Shown here in pieces: positions 4,791-59,469 of a DNA stretch of 62,533 bases. Under the pieces are notes generated by a model, which was given only the letters and a program-made list of their open reading frames with translations, was not told the origin of the DNA and ran no database searches. The first letter of the stretch is position 1, and each line of letters begins with the position of its first letter. The DNA lies in the IMG/VR virus record IMGVR_UViG_3300036861_000520, positions 1 through 62,533 of that record. The stretch is one strand, 5' to 3'. Origin of the DNA: a virus. Its lineage: Duplodnaviria > Caudoviricetes. A program made the translations under genes and the position numbers.

Positions 4791-6194
4791 TCAGTGTCTC
4801 CCGTTGCACGTGGCCCGCTCCCACAGGTCGGGATATTCGCCACGCGCCTCTTTCTCCACGTCCGTCAGCACCGCGAGTTGCGCTTGCCCCGGCACCGCAC
4901 CCGCGTTCCCGCCGGGGAGCGCCTGCGGCCCGTCGTAGCTGACCGCCACCGCCGGGGACTCGGTCTCTTCCTCGGCGTACTGCTCCTGGGTGTAGATCCC
5001 GTCGGCCCACCGCTGCCGGTTCACTCGCTGCCGGTTCAGGGCCGCCGTCGCCGCGAATGCCTCGGCCTGCGCCGTCTGGAGCACGTCCTGCAGGTTGACA
5101 TCCGGCCACACCAGTTCGTAGGGGACGCGCCGCGCCTGCAGCCGAAGCCGCAGATCCGTCACGAACCGGATGGGCGCTTCGAGCTCGCGCCGGATCGTAT
5201 CGACCTTCGCGAGCAGCATATCCGCCTGCTGCGTGGAGAGGCGCTCCGTCGTGCTCCACGAGTAGCCGAGCAGCCAAGGCGGCAGGCCCAGCGCGACCAG
5301 GATCTCCTCCATGATGTTGCGCTTGGACACCTGGATGTCCATCACCTGACCGTCCGCTCCGATGACGGTCACCGTGATACGGCCCGCCGTCACGAAGTCC
5401 TGCACCTTGCCGTCGATCACGGCCGACTTCATCCCGGCGTTCCACTGCTCGGAGAGCGCGTTGACTACGGCCTGCCCGATAGAGCCGTCCGCGTCGTCCA
5501 GGGTGTCTGGCAGAACACAGTTCACGTGGAAGCTCGGCGTGCCAGACCGCCGCCACGTCTGCCGGTGGTTGTGGAGGATGTCCATCCAGATCCCGGCCAC
5601 CGTCGGTATTGCCAGGAAGAGGCTTTCTCCGTAAGGCCCGCAGGCCGTGGGATCGTGCGTCAGGCTCACCGCCGTCTCGGGATTGAGCGGCTGCAGGCCG
5701 ACACTCGGCTTCTGCTGGAGCACCTGCAGCCCGCCGCCGGGATCGCTCCGAAAGCCGCACTGGCCGGATGCGTAGGACCAGAGGCGGGGCACTTCACGCC
5801 GCGCAGGATCGATCTCCGCCTCACCGACTGCGTAGCCGTAGCGGAGCGATTGCCCGCACATGTCGTCAACCCACGTGCAGAGGCCGGAGCCCGCGTGGCC
5901 GTAGGCAACCGTCTTCGCCCACGTGTTCAGTTCCAGCGTGTCGCTGTCGCTCTGGCAGAGGAACTCCGGCGAGCCCGCGAAACCTGCGAGCACCGAGACG
6001 GCCTGCTTCAGAGGCGGGATGTTCCGCCAGAAGGAATCGAGGAGTTGGAAGCTCTGGTCACGCGGCAACGCGCCGAAGCTCCCGAAGGCGCCGGCGTAGG
6101 ACGGGCGGCCGGAAAGCGTGATTGCCACCGGCGCGGCTTTCGCGGCTGGAGCCTTCTCGATGAACAGATCGCGAATGGCGGTGAGGAGGCTCAT
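4791..6194 (-). CDS. Portal protein
   Basis: 467 aa directly after TerL; PYGESL and ILVALGLPPWLLG motifs typical of portals. Confidence 0.8.
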   Translation of the reverse strand: MSLLTAIRDLFIEKAPAAKAAPVAITLSGRPSYAGAFGSFGALPRDQSFQLLDSFWRNIPPLKQAVSVLAGFAGSPEFLCQSDSDTLELNTWAKTVAYGHAGSGLCTWVDDMCGQSLRYGYAVGEAEIDPARREVPRLWSYASGQCGFRSDPGGGLQVLQQKPSVGLQPLNPETAVSLTHDPTACGPYGESLFLAIPTVAGIWMDILHNHRQTWRRSGTPSFHVNCVLPDTLDDADGSIGQAVVNALSEQWNAGMKSAVIDGKVQDFVTAGRITVTVIGADGQVMDIQVSKRNIMEEILVALGLPPWLLGYSWSTTERLSTQQADMLLAKVDTIRRELEAPIRFVTDLRLRLQARRVPYELVWPDVNLQDVLQTAQAEAFAATAALNRQRVNRQRWADGIYTQEQYAEEETESPAVAVSYDGPQALPGGNAGAVPGQAQLAVLTDVEKEARGEYPDLWERATCNGRH

Positions 6195-6248: not shown

Positions 6249-7727
6249 TCATACTGCGCCCCGTGGGGCTCCCAGTGCTACTCCGGGGATGTAGCCCGCC
6301 CGGTGCGTCAGCGCGGTGAACGCGTCGGATGCCGCGTCGATCTGGTCGTCGTGCGTGCCGTTTGGGAACGTCCGGCATTCTTCGATGAAGGCCGGCACCC
6401 AGGCGCCGCCGGACACGATCCACACGTTCCCTGCCTCGACCTGGGCGGCGAACGGCTCGGCACGGATCTCCTTCGGCCCGGTCACCCGCACGGTCCGCAC
6501 CCGGTAGCCGGCCAGCATCCGCGAGAACGCGCCGGCAGCCTCCACGCCCGCGGAACCAGGATCCTGCGGCCCGGTGATCTGCACCTCCCGGCCGTCCTGC
6601 CCGGCCGTGGCGACGATCTCATCGTTCCGGGCCCCCACCGACCACTGCCCGCGGCGCACGTGCTCAATGAAGTAGCGGCCGTCATCCGAGCGCGACATCA
6701 GCAGCCCGGCCGTGTAGTCCCCGCCGCCCTCGGTCGCCGCGTGGTCCCAGGAGCGCACCCGGCGCCGCTTGGCCGGCAAATCGCCGACGTCGCAGTATTG
6801 GAAGCGGCCGACCTTGAAGAACGCGCCCTCGCGGGGCGTGGGGTTGCCCTGGTAAAGTGCCTCGAACACGTATCCCCCCAGCGTGGCCCTCGTCACCTCG
6901 AGCTTCTCCGCGTCATACCGCGCCGGCCAGAGCGCCTCGCCCGGCTGCCGGCCGAGTGGATCGTTCGCCAGCGCCAGCGCCGGCAGGTTGAGCACTTCCC
7001 ACCGCTCGCCGCCTTCTGCCTGCGCAACGAGGATGCGGCCGGCCAGGTCGTCCTCGTGCCAGCGCGTCTGGATGAGCACTATGGCGCAGTCAGGTTCCTG
7101 CCGCGTGTAGAGGTCGCCGTACCAGTCCCACACACGCTCCCGGTAGGCCGGGCTCTCCGCTTCCTCGCGGTTCTTTACCGGATCGTCCATCACGATCAGG
7201 TTGGCGCCCCGGCCCATCGGGACCGTGCCGACGCCCGAGGAGAGGTAGGACCCGCCGCCGTGGGTCTCCCACTCCGCGGCAGCCTTCCGGTCCGGGCCCA
7301 TCAGGCTCCGCGATTCCGCCAGCCGACGCGACCGCCGGCCGAAATGGTTGGCGAAGGTCTGGTTGTAGCAGCCGACGACAACCCGCAGCGAAGGCTCACG
7401 CTCCAGCCGCCACACCGGATAGCGTATGGTGGCGAGCTCGCTCTTGCCGTGCCTGGGAGGGCAGAAGATCATCAGGCGCTTGAGTTCGCCGGCCGTCACC
7501 CGCTGGAGCGCGGCCTGGATGGCACGGAGGTGCGGGCGCTCCCAGTCCCACCCCGGCGCCGAGACCTGCGGGAGCCAGTCCGGGAACGCAGGCACGGCCG
7601 GCGCGTCAGTTGGTGGCCGGAGGAACTGATGGGTTGATAGCGCCTTGACCTGGGACCACGCCGCGGAGAGTTTCGCGCTCGAACCGGCTCCCAACCGCAT
7701 AGGCTGCCTGGTCTCCAGCGACATCAC
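6249..7727 (-). CDS. terL: Terminase large subunit
   Basis: Walker A PPRHGKS, Walker B IVMDDP, QTRWHEDD, nuclease motifs WDHA and FPNGTHDDQIDA; start position uncertain. Confidence 0.95.
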   Translation of the reverse strand: MMSLETRQPMRLGAGSSAKLSAAWSQVKALSTHQFLRPPTDAPAVPAFPDWLPQVSAPGWDWERPHLRAIQAALQRVTAGELKRLMIFCPPRHGKSELATIRYPVWRLEREPSLRVVVGCYNQTFANHFGRRSRRLAESRSLMGPDRKAAAEWETHGGGSYLSSGVGTVPMGRGANLIVMDDPVKNREEAESPAYRERVWDWYGDLYTRQEPDCAIVLIQTRWHEDDLAGRILVAQAEGGERWEVLNLPALALANDPLGRQPGEALWPARYDAEKLEVTRATLGGYVFEALYQGNPTPREGAFFKVGRFQYCDVGDLPAKRRRVRSWDHAATEGGGDYTAGLLMSRSDDGRYFIEHVRRGQWSVGARNDEIVATAGQDGREVQITGPQDPGSAGVEAAGAFSRMLAGYRVRTVRVTGPKEIRAEPFAAQVEAGNVWIVSGGAWVPAFIEECRTFPNGTHDDQIDAASDAFTALTHRAGYIPGVALGAPRGAV

Positions 7728-19123: not shown

Positions 19124-19339
19124 ATGGATGATATGCTCCGCGTTTCCGAGGTCGCTACGCGCTCCGGCCTTTCCGCGCGTGCCGTGCGGCGCGTCTGCCT
19201 GCGCCAGCCGGAGCGCCTGCCGGGCTGCGTCCTGACCGAGACACCCTGCGGGCCGGTCTGGCTCGTGCCGGCAAGCTCACTCGCCACGTTCACCCGAGGC
19301 CGACCAGGGCGCCGCCGCCGCGAACGTGACACCTCTTGA
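19124..19339 (+). CDS. Excisionase/HTH_17-like DNA-binding protein (HTH-2)
   Basis: LRVSEVATRSGLSARAVRR...PERLPGC...WLVPASSL; basic tail. Confidence 0.7.
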   Translation: MDDMLRVSEVATRSGLSARAVRRVCLRQPERLPGCVLTETPCGPVWLVPASSLATFTRGRPGRRRRERDTS

Positions 19340-19365
19340 CATAATGCTGCCATGGCTGGTAGTAT
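19336..19365 (+). promoter_or_regulatory. sigma70-type promoter with second copy of the CTRCCA-N4-TGGTAG operator
   Basis: TTGACA 19336-19341, 18 nt, TAGTAT 19360-19365; CTGCCATGGCTGGTAG 19347-19362. Confidence 0.65.
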
Positions 19366-19395
19366 TAGGGAGTAGTGATCCGAAGGAGGCTGCGC

Positions 19396-19734
19396 GTGAA
19401 CCCGATCCAGTGGATAGCCGATCTCATCCAGGCGCCGAAGCGAAGGCAGATCGCCTTCGACCACGTTGTGTTGGGAGTGATCGATGACTTCTACGGCCAC
19501 GGCTACGGCGTGCCAATCTTGAAGGAATTGACGCACCGGACAGGGCGGTTCATCTCCATCGGCGAGCTGTATACCGCCTTCGACCGTCTGGAGCAGGCGG
19601 GGCTCGTGACATCCAGAGAAGGCGACCCGACCGCGGAGCGCGGCTGGCGCCCGAGGCGCTACTACACCATCACAAAAGCAGGCGTGGACTGGTGGAATAC
19701 CCACCGCGCCGAGGAGAACACACCCGATGACTGA
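19396..19734 (+). CDS. PadR-family winged-helix regulator
   Basis: HGYGVPI...ISIGELYTAFDRLEQAGLV...RPRRYYTITKAG. Confidence 0.85.
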   Translation: MNPIQWIADLIQAPKRRQIAFDHVVLGVIDDFYGHGYGVPILKELTHRTGRFISIGELYTAFDRLEQAGLVTSREGDPTAERGWRPRRYYTITKAGVDWWNTHRAEENTPDD

Positions 19735-21567: not shown

Positions 21568-21806
21568 TCATTGATGAGACTGGGACCGCGATCGACGAGC
21601 GCACTGGCCTGGGTGCGCGGCAGTGGGAGGACAGCACCCACCCGGAGAATGGACTGCTGCTTTCCCGCACCCAGGAAGGCTACTACTGCGGCAGCGTGAG
21701 GGAACCTAATTGCGTCGTCGTTTTCATCTCACGAACCGACCCGGACCCGCGCACCGCCGTCGTTTGTGAGGCGCTGGAACGCCTCTGGGATGCGCTGGCA
21801 GAATGA
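21564..21806 (+). CDS. Hypothetical protein
   Basis: GGAGG RBS, coupled ORF. Confidence 0.6.
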   Translation: MIIDETGTAIDERTGLGARQWEDSTHPENGLLLSRTQEGYYCGSVREPNCVVVFISRTDPDPRTAVVCEALERLWDALAE

Positions 21807-22027
21807 GCGACTTCCTCACCACGACCCAGGCCGCCGAGCTGCTCGGGCTCTCGCGGCAACGTGTCGGGGTGCTGGTGAAGGGCGGCCGGTTCCCTGGCGC
21901 AGAGCAGTCCTCCCGTGGTAAGTGGTCGATCCCCGCCGCGAGCGTGGCCGGTTTCGTGCACCTGCCCAGGTCCGGGAACCGGACGCGCGGCAAGAAGCGG
22001 CGCGGCAGCCCACCCAAACGCAGGTGA
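21803..22027 (+). CDS. Excisionase/HTH_17-like DNA-binding protein (HTH-3)
   Basis: FLTTTQAAELLGLSRQRV...RFPGA...WSIPAASV; basic tail. Confidence 0.8.
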   Translation: MSDFLTTTQAAELLGLSRQRVGVLVKGGRFPGAEQSSRGKWSIPAASVAGFVHLPRSGNRTRGKKRRGSPPKRR

Positions 22028-23316: not shown

Positions 23317-23525
23317 GCCACAGCCTGCAGAACATCGGGGGCCCGTCCGCGCGGCTCACCTGCCCCCACTGCGGGGCAACCTCGGAGCATTACTGGCCCG
23401 GCGTGGATGCGCTGCCTGGCGTGGTCCACGAGCCGGAGTGCCAGGACTACGGGAAGGACTTGCCGGATCCGTTCGTGGGACCGGGCAGCGAATGCCCAGG
23501 AGAAGACGAAAATGATGAGGGATGA
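23313..23525 (+). CDS. CxxC...HxxxC zinc microprotein (paralog of 10865..11053)
   Basis: GGPSARLTCPHCGATSEHYWPGVD...HEPEC. Confidence 0.65.
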   Translation: MSHSLQNIGGPSARLTCPHCGATSEHYWPGVDALPGVVHEPECQDYGKDLPDPFVGPGSECPGEDENDEG

Positions 23526-23688
23526 AGAGAAGCAGGCCGTAGTGGCGGCAATGCGCGCCGTCGATGATCTGGCTCACGCGATCTCACCGCCGCGTGGGAC
23601 GCGAGAGGAGATCGAGGCTGCTTGCGATCGACTGGACGAGGCCCGCAATCGGATACGGGCGCTCATCATAGAAGAGAAGACCGGATGA
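23512..23688 (+). CDS. Small helical protein
   Basis: Coupled ORF. Confidence 0.55.
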   Translation: MMRDEEKQAVVAAMRAVDDLAHAISPPRGTREEIEAACDRLDEARNRIRALIIEEKTG

Positions 23689-23942
23689 GCGACCGACTGC
23701 GGGAAGCGGCGCGGGCCGTGCTGGCCGAGTACGAACGGCTGTCCGGGCAGGCGAACTGGACAGGCTCGCTGCGCGTGCAGCAGTCCGCACCGTGGAAGTG
23801 CCTCGCCCTGCCACTGGACGAGCTTGCGGCGGCCCTGGATGCGGCCGACGCGCCGACCTGCACCCAATGCGGCTGCGTGGTGGAGACCGGCATGATCTAC
23901 TGCCGGGACTGTGACCCGGATAGCGACCACGAGGGGGAATGA
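23685..23942 (+). CDS. Hypothetical protein with C-terminal zinc ribbon
   Basis: CTQCG...YCRDC. Confidence 0.55.
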   Translation: MSDRLREAARAVLAEYERLSGQANWTGSLRVQQSAPWKCLALPLDELAAALDAADAPTCTQCGCVVETGMIYCRDCDPDSDHEGE

Positions 23943-24133
23943 TGACCGCACCCATCCCGATTGAGGAACTGGCCCCGCGAGAGGAGCGCTGCACCCGCTG
24001 CCGGGGGCGGGGCTCGCTCTGGTTCTCGTGGAGCGATGCGCTCGAAACGAACGAGATCTGCCCGCAGTGCGGCGGGACTGGAAAAGAACCGCTGCGAGAG
24101 GAAGGAATAACCGAGCCCCACGGCGAACTGTAG
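23939..24133 (+). CDS. DnaJ-type CxxCxGxG zinc-finger microprotein
   Basis: CTRCRGRG...CPQCGGTG. Confidence 0.6.
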   Translation: MMTAPIPIEELAPREERCTRCRGRGSLWFSWSDALETNEICPQCGGTGKEPLREEGITEPHGEL

Positions 24134-24146
24134 ATCGACAAGCTTT

Positions 24147-24247
24147 GGCGCAGGAGGTGACCTCTCCCGCGCCGATGGCAGTGTCCCGTAAAGGCACTAC
24201 CCGAAGCGCCCGCCCGTGGAGAGGTCACCTCCGCAGGCGGGCGTTTC
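24147..24247 (+). ncRNA. Structured leader A: hairpin, small hairpin, terminator; first and last loops complementary
   Basis: GGAGGTGACCTCTCC 24153-24167 is the exact reverse complement of 24218-24232; loops GTGACCT/AGGTCAC. Confidence 0.7.
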
Positions 24248-24263
24248 CCGTCAGGAGACCACG

Positions 24264-24494
24264 ATGGCGCAGGTTAAGACCATCTGCATCACGGTCGGAC
24301 GCAAGATGTGCGACAAGGTGAATATGGACATCCGCACCCGCGAATATGGATTGTCGGCAACCCTGGAAGTGGCCGACGGCGAGGACGTGCGACAGGTCCT
24401 CTCTGCCTGGACGCCGCGACTTCAGGGCGTATGCGACGCGGCGGTAGGCGACTTCGGCCCCTACTCATTCCGCGAGCGCTGCAAGACGGATTGA
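24264..24494 (+). CDS. Hypothetical protein
   Basis: AGGAGACCACGATG start context. Confidence 0.65.
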   Translation: MAQVKTICITVGRKMCDKVNMDIRTREYGLSATLEVADGEDVRQVLSAWTPRLQGVCDAAVGDFGPYSFRERCKTD

Positions 24495-24596
24495 AAGACT
24501 TCGGGTAGGGAACGGCGCGCCCTGCCCGATTGACACACACGACGGCGCCAATGACAGGGGCGATGGTCTGCGGACCCGGCCCCGGAGAACACGCAA

Positions 24597-25211
24597 ATGG
24601 CTGGATGGGGTGGTGGTGGCGGGGGACTAGACCTCCCGCAGCGCGCGGAACCCTACACCGCGCAGGTGACTGATTGGGCGCAGGTAGAAGGCAAGGCCTT
24701 CCAGGACAAGCCCAACCCGGGGCCGCGGTTCAAGTTCTCGGTAGACGTGTGGATGGGCAACGCCTGGCAGCGGAAAACCATCTTCACCGGGACGAACTTC
24801 TGCGATCCGAACCAGGTCTCGGCCGCGAGCTTCATCCCGAAGCTGGTCAAGCTGGTCCGCGCCTGTGATATGCCCCTGCCGATGGACGCGCAGCAGGCCG
24901 CGGCCTGGACCGCCGACTGTCTGATCGGTAAGCGGTTCGGGATCCTGATGAGCCCGGACCCGGAAACCGGGAAGGTGGAACCGCGGTTCGTGCGACTGGC
25001 CCAGGCGCCGGTGTTGCCGCGGCCACCGGAGCGGCCGGCGCCTGCGGCACCACCCGCGCAGCAGTTCCAGCCACCGGCGCCGACGCCCGCACCGCCACAG
25101 TACGCGCCGCCGCCCGACGATCCCTTCGTCGAAGAAGGACCGCCGCTGACCCCGGACGGGACCTACGCCACGGCGCCGGCCGTCACTGGCCCCGTGGACG
25201 CCTGGAAGTAG
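24597..25211 (+). CDS. Putative single-stranded DNA-binding protein
   Basis: OB-like N-terminal half, Pro/Gln linker, DDPF and acidic/aromatic C-terminus; upstream of the primase. Confidence 0.55.
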   Translation: MAGWGGGGGGLDLPQRAEPYTAQVTDWAQVEGKAFQDKPNPGPRFKFSVDVWMGNAWQRKTIFTGTNFCDPNQVSAASFIPKLVKLVRACDMPLPMDAQQAAAWTADCLIGKRFGILMSPDPETGKVEPRFVRLAQAPVLPRPPERPAPAAPPAQQFQPPAPTPAPPQYAPPPDDPFVEEGPPLTPDGTYATAPAVTGPVDAWK

Positions 25212-25287
25212 TGTTCCACCAGGCCGACCACACTAGATAAGGGACTGCTACCAGCGACCTGATGCGGTAAAATTACTCACACCATCT

Positions 25288-25389
25288 TGCTCGCTGGGAG
25301 ACTTCACCTCCGAGCAGCTCCCACGGTGCCCCGCGCACTACAGACGCCCGTCCCCGGAGGTGAAGTCTCCTGGGACGGGCGTTTGTTAT
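25288..25389 (+). ncRNA. Structured leader B (homolog of A) upstream of the primase
   Basis: GGAGACTTCACCTCCG 25297-25312 is the exact reverse complement of 25355-25370; loops ACTTCAC/GTGAAGT; terminator stem 25344-25354/25372-25382; TAAAAT at 25268-25273. Confidence 0.7.
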
Positions 25390-25394
25390 CACCT

Positions 25395-27347
25395 ATGCCA
25401 AACCCAGAACCCGACCTCGGCCAACTGGAACAGGCCGCCGCTCTGCTACTCCCGCCCGGCCAGGTCCTCGAGCTCCGCGTTATTGGGAGCCACCGCGGGA
25501 CCGTCAGCGGCTACTACGACGATCCGGCCGCCCTGGTGCGAGACGCCGCCCTCTGGAGCGGGAAGGCCGGCGGGATCTACGTCACCCCGAACCCGGTCCG
25601 GCCGGACCTGCTCGCCCGCAGTTGTAACCGCGCCACAGAATTCGCCCGGCATACCACCAAGGCGGATGACATCCTCGCCCGCCGCTGGCTCCTGATCGAC
25701 TTCGACGCGAAACGCCCGGCGGGTATCTCGGCCAGTGAAGCGGAACACCGCGCCGCCCTGACCCGGGCCGCGGAATGTGCGACCTGGCTGATCGAGCGGC
25801 AGTGGCCTCCGGTGCTCTACGCGGACAGCGGGAACGGAGCGCACCTGCTCGCCCGTGTGGATCTGCCCAACGACCCGGAAACGCACAGCCTCTTCGAGCG
25901 CTGCCTGAACGCGCTCGCGGCCCAGTGGGATACGCCGGAAGTGTCGGTCGATCCGACCACGAAGGACGCCTCGCGAGTGTGGAAATTCTACGGGACAGCG
26001 GTTTGCAAGGGCGACAGCATCCCAACCCGGCCGCACCGGATCGCCCGCATCCTGCAAGCCGAGGGACTGGCCCCGGTGCCGCGGGCGCTATTGGAAGATC
26101 TCGCCGCACTGGTTCCAGTCGCTGCCGTCCGCACTGTTGGGAATGGCGCTTCCAATAGTAAAGCGCCGCTGGCGACTGGCTCTCGCGGCGATTATTCCTC
26201 GTTGGATGCTGTGGCCTGGTTCGGCGCCCACGGAGCTTACGGCAGGCCGCTGGCTAACGGCGCGCATGCAGTGCTGTGCCCCTGGGCCGGCGAGCATTCC
26301 GACCATCGACCCGCCGAGGACTCGGATACCGTCGTCTGGCCGGCGCAGGGTGAGGTCTGGCCGACCTTCCACTGCTCGCACGCCCATTGCGCGCAGAGGA
26401 CCCTGAAGGACGTTCTAGCCTTCTGGGGAGACGCCGACCGGTTCTGCTCCCTTTCGTTCACCAGTGCCCCGCGTTGGCCCGTGTCGGCGTCCCCTGCGGT
26501 ATTTCAGGACACTGCCCCGGTTAGCGGACGGATCGAAGAGCAGAGCCGACAGCACGCTCTGTTGACGCAGGCTGGTGCGCTGCGCCGAACCGGCCTGGAG
26601 CCGGCCGCGATTGAAGCCGCCCTCCAGGTGGTCAACGCGGAACGCTGCGAGCCGCCGCTACCCGTCGATGCCGTGGCAGAGATAGCTGCCCAGGTTGGCC
26701 GCTACGAACCGGCCGAGGCCCAGGACTGGCGGGTCGGCGCCGCTGGGGTCGCGACGTTCACCGGATTAGACCCGCTCATTCGGATCGGATCGACACCGCC
26801 ACGCTATAAGGCCACAGTGCGCGGCAGAGTGATCGAACTCTCTGGGAAGGAGATGGCCGAATGGCGGCTGTTCAAATTCCGATGCATCACCGAAATGGGC
26901 TGCGTGCTGGAGTTGCCTTCAAATCCGATACAGGAGAAGGTCCCGCTACAAATCCGTTGGGAGCGTGAGTTCATCGGGCCTGCGTTGGAGCGAATGAACC
27001 GCTTGGGGCAGTTCGAGGAAGCCCCGGAAGACGCCGGAGAACCAGGCGCAGCCTGGCAGAGTATCCTGCGCTGGTTTGAGAACATCAAGCCGGATGCGAC
27101 CATTGAGGACGTTGCGGCTGGCAGGGCTGCCAGGATCGATGACCACTACGTGTTCAAGGGAGAGTCGCTCCGGCACTGGATGCAGGCTAACCGGGTGGAC
27201 AAGCTCCCACCCGATCAAATCTGGCACGTCGTCAGAGCCCACGGCGGGAAACCGCAAACCCACCGGATAGGGCGAGGCACCGTCTTTGCCTGGCGGGTGC
27301 CGGTGCCCGGAACCGGTGCTGATTGTGTGGTGAGTGTGCCGGAATAA
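25395..27347 (+). CDS. AEP-type primase-polymerase with zinc finger and PriCT-1-like domain
   Basis: LIDFD, DSGNGAH, CPW..EH...FHCSHAHC, AGALRR...VNAERCEPPLP; no Walker A seen. Confidence 0.8.
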   Translation: MPNPEPDLGQLEQAAALLLPPGQVLELRVIGSHRGTVSGYYDDPAALVRDAALWSGKAGGIYVTPNPVRPDLLARSCNRATEFARHTTKADDILARRWLLIDFDAKRPAGISASEAEHRAALTRAAECATWLIERQWPPVLYADSGNGAHLLARVDLPNDPETHSLFERCLNALAAQWDTPEVSVDPTTKDASRVWKFYGTAVCKGDSIPTRPHRIARILQAEGLAPVPRALLEDLAALVPVAAVRTVGNGASNSKAPLATGSRGDYSSLDAVAWFGAHGAYGRPLANGAHAVLCPWAGEHSDHRPAEDSDTVVWPAQGEVWPTFHCSHAHCAQRTLKDVLAFWGDADRFCSLSFTSAPRWPVSASPAVFQDTAPVSGRIEEQSRQHALLTQAGALRRTGLEPAAIEAALQVVNAERCEPPLPVDAVAEIAAQVGRYEPAEAQDWRVGAAGVATFTGLDPLIRIGSTPPRYKATVRGRVIELSGKEMAEWRLFKFRCITEMGCVLELPSNPIQEKVPLQIRWEREFIGPALERMNRLGQFEEAPEDAGEPGAAWQSILRWFENIKPDATIEDVAAGRAARIDDHYVFKGESLRHWMQANRVDKLPPDQIWHVVRAHGGKPQTHRIGRGTVFAWRVPVPGTGADCVVSVPE

Positions 27348-57816: not shown

Positions 57817-58023
57817 CTAGCCTCCTGCCGCAAGTGCGGCGGCCCGTTCCAACGTCGTCTCTGCCGGCTCACCCGGCACCCCAACTAAAAGCCCCAGATA
57901 CCGGCCGTGGATCACCGCCCCACGGTCCAACCGCTCATACACTGCCCACCACTGCGCGCCCGCCGCGGACGCCGGAACCAGGATCACCGGCCCGAGCGCG
58001 AGGTTGTGCGCCAGATCAGACAA
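57817..58023 (-). CDS. Hypothetical protein
   Basis: Fills the gap between protease and decoration genes; TTG start inferred. Confidence 0.4.
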   Translation of the reverse strand: MSDLAHNLALGPVILVPASAAGAQWWAVYERLDRGAVIHGRYLGLLVGVPGEPAETTLERAAALAAGG

Positions 58024-59419
58024 AGGCCGCGTCCCGCGCTGCCTGCTTCGGAGCCTGCTCGTCCTCGTCCCGGATGCTGGTGTCCCCACTCGTGCCGGCC
58101 GGGAACTTGGCGAGGACCGCCGCCGCCTTCGCGTCCGCGAGCTTCATCAGCTTCTCGTAGTCGCGCTGTTCGGAGAGGTGCTCGGTGATGAGCGCCAGTT
58201 CCGCGTTCTCGGCGGTGCCCGTCAGGCGGAAGTCGTCATCGAGGATGGACTTCACCGTCCGCGCGAGCGCCTTCCGGCCGATCTCCGCCACCGGCTCCAG
58301 CGCTTTCACCTGGGCTTCCAGATCGAGAGCCCGCTTCTCGACGGCTGCGAGTTTCTCTGCGGAGCCGTCCTGGTCGGCCCGGCTGGTCTCCAGCGCCTTC
58401 AGGCACGCGGCCTCGTCGGCGTCGTCGGCCAGGCCGAACATCTTGCGAAGCTTCTCCAACATCACTTCATCCTCCGCGGCGTCCGGGTGACCGCCTGTCA
58501 ATGCGCCGAAAAACCGTTCAAGATCCGCCGGGGTCCCGCTTACAACAGAAGACTTGCCGCCCGAAGAGAACCCCCACACTCGCTGCTTGCTGCCGAACTG
58601 GCGAGCGAGCCCTTCCGCGACCTTGAGCGCGACCTCATCAATGCCGTAAGGCGTCGAGCAGAGCGCTCGCACATCCACCGCCCCATCCGCGCACATCTCG
58701 TAGGCCTTGCGGATGCGGGCATTCGGCTGCGCGCCGAGGTAGACGATGCTCGTCTCTACCGCCTCAACGTGACGCTGGATCTCCTCGGCCGTGCCGCTGT
58801 AGGTCAGCGTGACCAGCGGCGAGTCGGGATTGTCGCGTTCCGCCGGATAGCCTGCCCAATGCGGACAATCCGAGAAGTACGACTTCTTGCACACATCGCA
58901 GTTGATGTCCGCGTAGGAGAAGCCGATCGAAACTGAGTTGTAAACGCCCTGCCGGATGCGGGCGTCCATCGGCTCCGAGGCCGCGTCCTTCGGGTAGTAG
59001 AAGCCTGCCGAGAGGACATTGACCTTCCGCCGCTTGGTCTCGAAGCCGGGCACCGGCTCCACCGCAAGCGACTTTCCACCCGGCTGGACGAAGATCGGGT
59101 GATCCTGCATCCGGCTCACCACCTCGGCGGAGTGGAACTTGCCGAGCGGCAGCGCCCCGCGCGTCTGGTGGCCCGCCATCAGCCCCTTGCCGGGGAGCGT
59201 CTCCGCGAACCGCTGGAGATACTCGACTGGGAACCGCTCTAGCGTCCGGTCGTACTGGTCGTGGCACACATCCATCTGCCGGATGGTGACCTCGTCCGCC
59301 GCGACCGGCTCGAGGGTGTGCTGGTTCACCGCCGCGAGCGCCGCCGCGTCAACCTCGGCCGCTTTGAACGCGGTCCCCAGGTCTCGCAGGTCGAATTCGC
59401 GGACACGGATGTGGGACAT
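58016..59419 (-). CDS. Prohead protease-scaffold fusion
   Basis: DRTLERF, GH, SVSIGF..CDVC, C.H..G, ETSIVYLGAQ; C-terminal coiled-coil scaffold. Confidence 0.85.
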   Translation of the reverse strand: MSHIRVREFDLRDLGTAFKAAEVDAAALAAVNQHTLEPVAADEVTIRQMDVCHDQYDRTLERFPVEYLQRFAETLPGKGLMAGHQTRGALPLGKFHSAEVVSRMQDHPIFVQPGGKSLAVEPVPGFETKRRKVNVLSAGFYYPKDAASEPMDARIRQGVYNSVSIGFSYADINCDVCKKSYFSDCPHWAGYPAERDNPDSPLVTLTYSGTAEEIQRHVEAVETSIVYLGAQPNARIRKAYEMCADGAVDVRALCSTPYGIDEVALKVAEGLARQFGSKQRVWGFSSGGKSSVVSGTPADLERFFGALTGGHPDAAEDEVMLEKLRKMFGLADDADEAACLKALETSRADQDGSAEKLAAVEKRALDLEAQVKALEPVAEIGRKALARTVKSILDDDFRLTGTAENAELALITEHLSEQRDYEKLMKLADAKAAAVLAKFPAGTSGDTSIRDEDEQAPKQAARDAAFV

Positions 59420-59435
59420 TGGCTCCCAGAAATGC

Positions 59436-59469
59436 AAAAAGGCCAGGCACCCATAAGGGCACCCGGCCT
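59436..59469 (-). terminator. Intrinsic terminator just upstream of the protease gene
   Basis: AGGCCGGGTGCCC-TTAT-GGGTGCCTGGCCT followed by TTTT on the minus strand. Confidence 0.65.

Follow-up and report, generated by a model that had tools for sequence, protein, structure and literature searches.

In the antisense-controlled leaders of the rep genes of pT181-type plasmids, as in those of pIP501 and pAMbeta1, a preemptor and a terminator form mutually exclusive structures. A different arrangement is found in ColE1 RNA I and RNA II, where an RNA of about 100 nt with three hairpins, located near replication functions, presents fully complementary 7-nt loops, and in the c4 antisense RNAs of P1 and P7, for which a model exists in Rfam, compensatory changes in both partners give separate specificities, or heteroimmune codes. 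At the DNA level, the homologous hairpins ssiA and ssiB of RSF1010 lie on opposite strands, beside a primase system of the plasmid type. An account of pT181 describes termination control of replication genes through loop-loop contacts, with specificity set by the sequence of the loop and upper stem (PMC3753616). Similarly, P4 immunity is described as RNA-RNA pairing of boxes within one sense transcript that terminates transcription before the replication genes (PMC4825925). Here we analyze two leader-like elements, A (24142-24250) and B (25289-25389), that precede replication genes in IMGVR_UViG_3300036861_000520. The window that was analyzed is this whole virus record, which comprises 62,533 bp with direct terminal repeats and is rated complete.

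We propose, with a probability of about one half, that A and B are paired, orthogonally coded kissing-loop terminator/antiterminator leaders that act in cis before a replication module. Counted for this attenuator reading are the 15-16-nt complementarity within each element, the pairing preserved in two copies, the energetics of the competing folds, the terminator-like hairpins that are the strongest in the genome, the plus-strand orientation, the predicted orthogonality of the loops, and the precedents named above.

Two leaders with one layout and separate loop codes

In both elements a first hairpin (H1) is followed by a small one (H2) that ends in GCACUAC, then by a long, GC-rich one (T, here T_A and T_B) and a run of U's (Table 1). 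H1 of A has a 5-bp basal stem, an A/C mismatch, a GGAG/CUCC apical stem and the 7-nt loop GUGACCU, and its counterpart in B carries GGAG-ACTTCAC-CTCC at 25297-25311. The top of H1 (box a) is an exact complement of the apex of T (box c), which in B reads GGAG-GTGAAGT-CTCC at 25356-25370. All four apical hairpins are alike, each having a 4-5-bp GGAG/CUCC stem and a 5-7-nt loop with a 1x1 mismatch below. The stabilities of T_A and T_B, calculated with our own script, are -32.6 and -32.8 kcal/mol, respectively. T_A is followed by UUU (24244-24246) and then CCC, whereas the tail of T_B is UUUGUU (25382-25387). An earlier reading ended B 6 nt short of the primase ATG. In fact, base pairing in T_B extends to 25386 and the ATG begins at 25395, 8 nt past the hairpin and with no Shine-Dalgarno (SD) sequence ahead of it.

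The two copies were compared by anchoring on the GGAG/CUCC stems, on GCACUAC and on CGCCCG...CGGGCGUUU, and no base pair is broken between them. Specifically, all five of the H1 basal pairs compared next to the mismatch differ on both sides with pairing kept. In H2 the 3' arm is kept, and two of the five compared pairs change on one side, in the 5' arm, to or from G.U, while in the basal stem of T one of eight compared pairs, in the upper part, changes from C-G to U-A. The H1 loop differs at 6 of its 7 positions and the T loop follows, yielding the fully complementary 7-nt pairs GUGACCU/AGGUCAC in A and ACUUCAC/GUGAAGU in B. Put differently, B resembles A with the loop words swapped and two central bases altered (GUGA-CC-U versus GUGA-AG-U), such that GGAGGUGA and UCACCUCC are retained in both copies but in opposite order. 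The original prediction, an earlier reading of this DNA, had recognized these as a full SD word and its anti-SD; the words are present in this opposite order, but no usable start codon lies at normal spacing from them. Together, the comparison supports A and B as paralogs of one layout. It also shows that complementarity has been maintained between the copies, although two sequences do not reveal whether selection acts on the RNA or on the DNA.

The predicted energies of the loop duplexes separate the two codes. Cognate duplexes are calculated at -9.7 (A) and -7.3 (B) kcal/mol, whereas the cross pairs, at -2.8 and -2.9 kcal/mol, are far weaker, and the codes of A and B are thus predicted to be orthogonal, with no cross-talk.

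The observation itself is real and far beyond chance. A repeat search returned 24153-24167/24218-24232 (15 nt) and 25297-25312/25355-25370 (16 nt), both 100% complementary, and the shared layout, the complementary loops with different codes and the 15- and 16-nt inverted repeats reported earlier are all in the sequence. With 25-90 nt spacing, 15-mer inverted-repeat seeds number 3 against a mean of 0.01 in dinucleotide shuffles, none of 100 of which reach 3, and 12-mer seeds number 9 against 0.66 (n=100). In the genome scan, A and B alone have perfect inverted repeats of at least 12 nt. They are also the only places in the whole record with the double GGAG-N7-CTCC pattern (reversed control, 0), and GCACTAC..CGCCCG has 2 matches where 0.08 are expected (0/100 shuffles). 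The folds reach -66.3 kcal/mol for A (z -5.35) and -58.3 kcal/mol for B (z -4.88), values equaled by none of 200 shuffles in either case. The proposed homology of A and B holds as well, in that a covariance model built from A alone recovers B (31.5 bits, E 3e-4). The same model finds no third copy in the genome: besides A, B and the reverse strands of their terminators, the next match has an E value of at least 0.086. A search of the genome for sites that the loop words might target in trans gave no clear site. In X2, an independent soil DNA run, both leaders are letter-identical and thus provide no natural variants. The X2 contigs break within H1 of A, where pieces end at 24160 and begin at 24163, probably as an assembly-graph effect of the inverted repeat.

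A candidate termination switch

To compare the folds open to each leader, transcripts of increasing length were folded. When the 3' end lies between the apex and the 3' arm of T, which is roughly what has emerged when polymerase stands on the U-tract, the minimum free energy (MFE) structure is the duplex of boxes a and c (A, -47.9 versus -34.4 kcal/mol for the local hairpins; B truncated likewise, -40.5 versus -27.3 kcal/mol). Before the 3' arm of T is made, this duplex of the H1 and T tops thus has an advantage of about 13 kcal/mol. Once the arm is present, H1, H2 and T together form the MFE structure (A, -59.7 to -64.9; B, -53.8 to -58.3 kcal/mol). A molecule holding both the a:c duplex and a complete T would be an H-type pseudoknot in which loops of 1-3 nt connect across a 15-bp helix, a geometry that appears sterically excluded. 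The a:c duplex and the terminator should therefore be mutually exclusive, as in a terminator/antiterminator arrangement. Both copies thus show one hallmark of an attenuator: the terminator competes with another pairing that rules it out and that is preferred until the terminator is complete. These calculations support pairing of the H1 and T tops as an energetically competitive alternative to the terminator in nascent transcripts. Part of the switch proposed in the original prediction is upheld in this way, namely the competing pairing and the predicted insulation of the codes. The suggested response to ribosomes or antisense RNA is conjecture; neither a promoter nor a terminator for an antisense transcript was seen.

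The T hairpins are GC-rich stem-loops on the strand that would be transcribed, as expected of intrinsic terminators, and T_B and T_A are the most stable of 106 hairpin-plus-TTT sites genome-wide by our own script (the next are -31.0, -30.8 and -30.1 kcal/mol). A T-run lies 3' of the stem on the plus strand only, and the G.U pairs in H2 and at the base of T become A.C mismatches on the minus strand. Elsewhere in the genome, a canonical terminator with a 13-bp stem and UUUUU (59440-59469, minus strand) ends 3 nt ahead of the putative start of 58016-59437 (minus strand). This terminator abuts a gene start, and placing terminators right before starts therefore seems to be a habit of this phage.

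We hypothesize that A and B are read on the plus strand with the genes and attenuate transcription inside the rightward early/replication block of a soil phage. Each leader would end in a strong intrinsic-terminator-type hairpin, 8-17 nt ahead of the next start codon. The top of this hairpin, a weak GGAG/CUCC stem with a 7-nt loop set apart from the basal stem by a 1x1 mismatch, would serve as the exact complement of the top of H1. H1 is the first hairpin made, with a calculated stability of -20.9 (A) or -15.2 (B) kcal/mol on its own, and by folding first it would keep its box locked, such that the default outcome would be termination. For polymerase to read through, the two loops would have to kiss and the 4-bp apical stems then exchange, or else H1 would have to be opened or occupied by a factor. 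In this arrangement A would gate entry to the 76-amino acid (aa) and DUF669-like genes, B would gate entry to the primase-helicase genes, and the different loop words would keep the two from cross-pairing. Transcription of A and B, termination at T, use of the switch and the nature of its trigger are what we infer from the anatomy and energetics.

Several findings weigh against this proposal. Along the best nested route, refolding of the local hairpins into the a:c duplex meets a barrier of 22-38 kcal/mol, and the alternative fold may never form without a kissing route or a factor. Because a pre-folded H1 blocks the switch, that route or factor must decide, and loop-loop kissing with apical-stem exchange is outside what findpath can model. 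No sensor that would select the fold was found among Rfam aptamers, plausible leader open reading frames (ORFs) or annotated antiterminators. In A, the U-tract consists of just UUU. Short U-tracts are also seen at other likely terminators of operon ends in this phage, so A is not out of style in this respect. Neither T hairpin was called by a consensus terminator scan that required at least 5 T in 8 and a loop of 3-8, and a consensus scan called no promoter before B. The TAAAAT box pointed out earlier does exist ahead of B, but it has no good -35 partner. The minus strand folds about equally well (-71.6 kcal/mol for A, -57.6 kcal/mol for B). No RNA run is listed as containing the phage, so that neither 3' ends nor read-through were seen. 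The closest primase relative (51% identity) has no such leader. Moreover, distant relatives have perfect palindromes inside their prim-pol genes, a place in which a terminator would serve no purpose, and this favors DNA-level roles for inverted repeats near such genes. The main weakness is the absence of comparative support beyond two paralogs, in that no homologs of the leaders were found in the collections searched and the covariation is therefore that of A and B alone.

Genomic setting and search for relatives

The phage record has a GC content of about 65% (0.64-0.67 around A and B), no tRNA genes were found in it, and the runs that contain the record or portions of it are three soil metagenome DNA runs. 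As judged from third-position GC, minus-strand genes occupy about 1-19 kb and 42-62 kb, and a plus-strand block spans about 19.4-41.4 kb. A sigma-70-like promoter at 19336-19365, just before the PadR gene that opens this block, was the sole call of a promoter scan in 18-32 kb. Small unknown ORFs make up the block between the PadR gene and the replication genes, and the gene order beyond the primase is UvrD-type helicase, SNF2 helicase and C5 methylase. A and B fill the two intergenic spacers that flank the 76-aa/204-aa gene pair in this plus-strand array.

Table 1. Features of leaders A and B and of neighboring genes, in window coordinates
Feature	Position	Strand	Description
Leader A, hairpin H1	core 24147-24173, extended stem 24142-24179	+	GGCGC-A-GGAG-GTGACCT-CTCC-C-GCGCC
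Leader A, box a	24153-24167	+	15-mer GGAGGTGACCTCTCC, includes GGAGGTGA; exact reverse complement of A box c
Leader A, hairpin H2	24180-24198	+	6 bp including one G.U; 3' arm GGCACU, then AC
Leader A, terminator-like hairpin T_A	24203-24247	+	12-bp basal stem, C/A mismatch, 6-bp apical stem
Leader A, box c	24218-24232	+	15-mer GGAGAGGTCACCTCC, T_A apex GGAG-AGGTCAC-CTCC, includes TCACCTCC
TAAAAT, possible -10 box of a B-specific promoter	25268-25273	+	Weak -35; no call by consensus scan
Leader B, hairpin H1	25289-25318	+	Basal GCU-(C)-GCU/AGC-AGC, G/G mismatch, GGAG/CUCC apical stem, loop ACUUCAC
Leader B, box a	25297-25312	+	16-mer GGAGACTTCACCTCCG, includes TCACCTCC
Leader B, hairpin H2	25325-25339	+	5 bp including one G.U; 3' arm GCACU, then AC
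Leader B, terminator-like hairpin T_B	25340-25386	+	15-bp basal stem, C/U mismatch, apical GGAG(G)/(U)CUCC
Leader B, box c	25355-25370	+	16-mer CGGAGGTGAAGTCTCC at T_B apex, includes GGAGGTGA
PadR-type regulator	19375-19734	+	Pfam E 4.7e-13; opens plus-strand block
Helix-turn-helix/excisionase-like protein	21803-22027	+	Among the small ORFs of the plus-strand block
64-aa protein	23939-24133	+	Two CXXCXGXG motifs (DnaJ-type zinc finger); ends 8 nt upstream of extended H1 of A
76-aa gene	24264-24494	+	SD AGGAGA and ATG at 24253-24266; ATG 24264, 17 nt past T_A
204-aa gene	24597-25211	+	Between A and B; N-terminal domain, Pro-rich linker, DDPF motif
Primase gene	25395-27347	+	PriCT_1 domain (E 2e-8); prim-pol relatives

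The start assigned to the primase is backed by its 51%-identical relative, with which the alignment begins at residue 3. The 204-aa gene was previously called SSB-like, a label that finds no support in Pfam or PHROG; the one lead, from Atlas features, is to DUF669, and the protein has no relative in the viral contigs. The 64-aa protein was considered as a Q-like antiterminator and rejected: its PHROG matches (E 4.5e-5 and 3.1e-4) are weak and span the zinc motif alone. The 76-aa and 204-aa genes are separated by a spacer containing a GC-rich hairpin of 9 bp (CGGGTAGGG...CCCTGCCCG; 24501-24535), which runs directly into TTGACA and has neither a T-run nor a good -10 box. Dispersed over the genome, GGAGGTGAAGT has 33 sites with at most 2 mismatches against 14.4 expected (0/100 shuffles), an excess that is possibly a codon-usage effect.

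The leaders had been described as not assignable to a named family, and this stands. Across the whole window, no Rfam family reached its gathering score and nothing overlapped A or B at E values up to 10. No match to a model of the P4 CI RNA/isrK type, of c4 or of another curated phage RNA was obtained. The primase relatives comprise 14 genome, 15 viral and 67 metagenome loci, the best of them at 51% identity (L003 = L035, same contig). The covariance search suggested along with the original prediction, run with the A-only model, found B but no homologs, with 0 matches in these 96 loci (484,608 bases). A blastn comparison with 50,697 phage records gave, among the 25 records listed of 181, short low-complexity or coding matches, none inside A or B.

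Six pattern scans of the viral collection likewise produced nothing credible. In viral contigs, the SD/anti-SD boxes in both orders gave 0 matches, as did a terminator with a GGAG-N7-CTCC apex. The pattern H1+GCACTAC+CGCCCG gave 3 stretches, all dissimilar when read, and GCACTAC with the terminator stem gave 7, none convincing. The generic double GGAG-N7-CTCC pattern returned at least 118 stretches. Box pairs were counted in 219 loci, which include the window's own L001/L002 and the primase loci, and number 141. The three foreign cases with complementary loops in these loci (L110, L112 and L170) are plain long palindromes. In the first of these, a 411-kb viral contig, L110:6990-7140 holds paired self-folding 23-nt boxes (GGAGGGAG-N7-CTCCCTCC), spaced about 70 nt from each other, whose loops are complementary; TTTCAATT repeats flank them, and a second pair lies at 6658-6750. 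L220 (22.1 bits) was rejected as a leader homolog since it appears to be the 3' end of a group II intron. At L220:4711-6110, a maturase-like ORF ends at 5949 and is followed by a domain V-like hairpin (5964-5998) and a domain VI-like hairpin; a strong terminator and a ParB-like gene come shortly after. The H1-like hairpin there, after the maturase ORF and domain V, is what we take to be domain VI.

Two familiar forms of attenuation were considered and set aside. Leader-peptide attenuation would rely on the AUG at 24175, which opens 48 codons through T_A, but this codon stands 17 nt away from GGAGG and B has nothing equivalent. A riboswitch fits poorly because the 15-16-bp P1-like helix is too stable, and no Rfam aptamer was matched.

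Competing explanations and known systems

Of the alternatives to a cis-acting switch, the one that survives best, though we consider it unlikely, is that A and B are plain constitutive intergenic terminators, or RNA-stabilizing or processing hairpins (for example, RNase III-type sites), that punctuate an early operon without a regulated switch. H1 and H2 would then be accessory, and the complementarity of H1 and T would do no more than allow a tertiary kissing contact by which the RNA is compacted or protected. This would agree with the resemblance of T_A and T_B to the other likely terminators of the phage, than which they are only stronger, and with the three-hairpin fold as the full-length MFE structure by 9-14 kcal/mol. 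Likewise, reaching the alternative fold would cost at least 22 kcal/mol, and the annotations hold neither a sensor nor an effector. Nevertheless, simple terminators leave unexplained why a perfect complement of 15-16 nt, which extends beyond the loop, has been kept through a change of code in both copies, and why short, mismatch-bounded apical stems occur in four of four hairpins. In addition, an intramolecular kiss with the stems closed looks strained by our geometric estimate, with about 36 stacked bp to be spanned by about 10 nt plus H2.

Alternatively, though we consider this unlikely as well, A and B could be self-addressed sense-strand riboregulators. RNAs ended at T would accumulate, kiss nascent copies of the leader, block the exchange between H1 and T, and force termination. 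The points of contact would be the free T-apex and H1 loops of the terminated RNAs, which would meet the complementary loops of the nascent leader. The outcome would be autogenous, countertranscript-like feedback on the replication genes with no antisense gene, and the codes would separate the A and B circuits. Reciprocal loops could also allow head-to-tail pairing of RNAs into dimers or rings.

A DNA-level element, which we consider slightly less likely than plain terminators, would display the same GGAG-loop-CTCC hairpin on both strands, with H1 providing the top-strand copy and T the bottom-strand copy. Such sites might be single-strand initiation or origin-type sites, for which ssiA and ssiB of RSF1010 on opposite strands are a precedent, or paired sites for the primase or another DNA-binding protein. 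With one site per strand, complementarity of the form X...rc(X) would be automatic, and the position immediately upstream of the primase and around the DUF669-like gene would be fitting, as would the equally good folding of the minus strand. Long perfect inverted repeats are, moreover, common among the 96 primase-relative loci, both in iteron-bearing loci (L018/L019/L055, L052 and L099) and as 16-17-bp palindromes within ORFs (L028, L029, L030 = L082 and L086). However, A and B have no iterons and no AT-rich stretch around them; none of the 20 largest of 25 direct-repeat families in 23500-26000 is iteron-like. A DNA hairpin also fails to account for the T-run, the GC-rich basal stem of T, the difference between H1 and T in their basal stems, the exact position ahead of start codons, or G.U pairs in H2 and at the base of T that pair on the plus strand only, and two sites with different words would need two specificities.

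The repeats near primase relatives can be described further. Four distinct distant prim-pol genes contain 16-17-bp perfect inverted repeats whose arms are 31-54 nt apart (L028:2981-3043; L029:2876-2959; L030:2898-2955, the same as L082:3898-3955; L086:512-598). They lie in the poorly conserved linker from the primase domain to the zinc/PriCT part, with arms that differ by locus and complementarity that is perfect. The linker of the window's own primase (26080-26230) folds weakly (z -1.63). At a distance of 1-2 kb from other primase relatives, 17-18-bp perfect inverted repeats are built of short direct repeats (TGCAAGCTT, GTTGCAG, GTGAAGGTC); these (L018:866-953, the same in L019 and L055; L052:3177-3271; L099:6104-6204) look like replication origins.

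Finally, a ribosome-linked device, in which the SD word GGAGGUGA (H1 of A, T apex of B) would be bound by a free 30S subunit or act as a standby site and the anti-SD UCACCUCC would mask it, coupling termination or translation of the SD-less primase to ribosome availability, is highly improbable: both 8-mers do occur in both copies with their order swapped, the phage genes use GGAG-type SDs, and AUCACCU before the primase ATG can pair with AGGUGA of the T_B apex (25358-25363), perhaps by chance, but neither SD word has a start codon within working range (the AUG at 24175 in A comes 17 nt after GGAGG, and the ATG in B lies 34 nt away), A and B would behave differently because of the swapped order, GGAG/CUCC is also just what forms the apical stem, and there is no leader peptide signal.

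If the proposed cis-acting switch is real, then A and B would represent an attenuator of natural origin in which a kissing-loop code directs the antiterminator to the apex of the very terminator it opposes, and they would do so as two mutually orthogonal copies in one genome. The phage would thereby have a new way to time or limit the expression of replication genes. One account of pT181 describes orthogonal RNA transcription regulators as currently made by engineering that system (PMC3753616); A and B would offer a compact natural template for such regulators. If they are not a switch, the pair becomes a clean example of how sequence alone can mislead, given that the same inverted repeats fit a DNA-hairpin reading.

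In function, A and B are closest to the pT181-class attenuators of rep genes and to P4 immunity, and belong to neither class because they have no antisense gene, no Rfam match and one box pair per element. The ssi sites of RSF1010 differ from them, in that A and B have no iterons nearby and bear marks of an RNA element, namely a U-run, G.U pairs confined to one strand and a position ahead of start codons. The fully complementary 7-nt hairpin loops recall ColE1. There, however, the loops arise by antisense transcription of the same DNA and act in primer maturation, whereas both loops of A and B are on the plus strand and one sits on a terminator. The two codes recall those of P1 and P7 c4; c4, however, acts on the ribosome-binding site of the ant/icd mRNA, whereas the partner in A and B is the apex of a terminator. 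As in P4 (CI RNA, seqA-seqB-seqC), complementary boxes lie in one sense transcript upstream of replication genes, but in P4 a processed, stable CI RNA pairs with two target boxes, whereas A and B each have one box pair, both members of which are hairpin tops.

The pT181 type shares with A and B a leader before a replication gene, exclusive antiterminator and terminator pairings, and a loop and upper stem with an interior mismatch below. Unlike pT181, A and B have no detected countertranscript gene, as no promoter-like site was found on the minus strand in 18-32 kb and no U-run follows the minus-strand hairpins. The partner of the sensing hairpin is instead the terminator's own apex on the same strand, and the arrangement resides in a phage, as two differently coded copies per genome.

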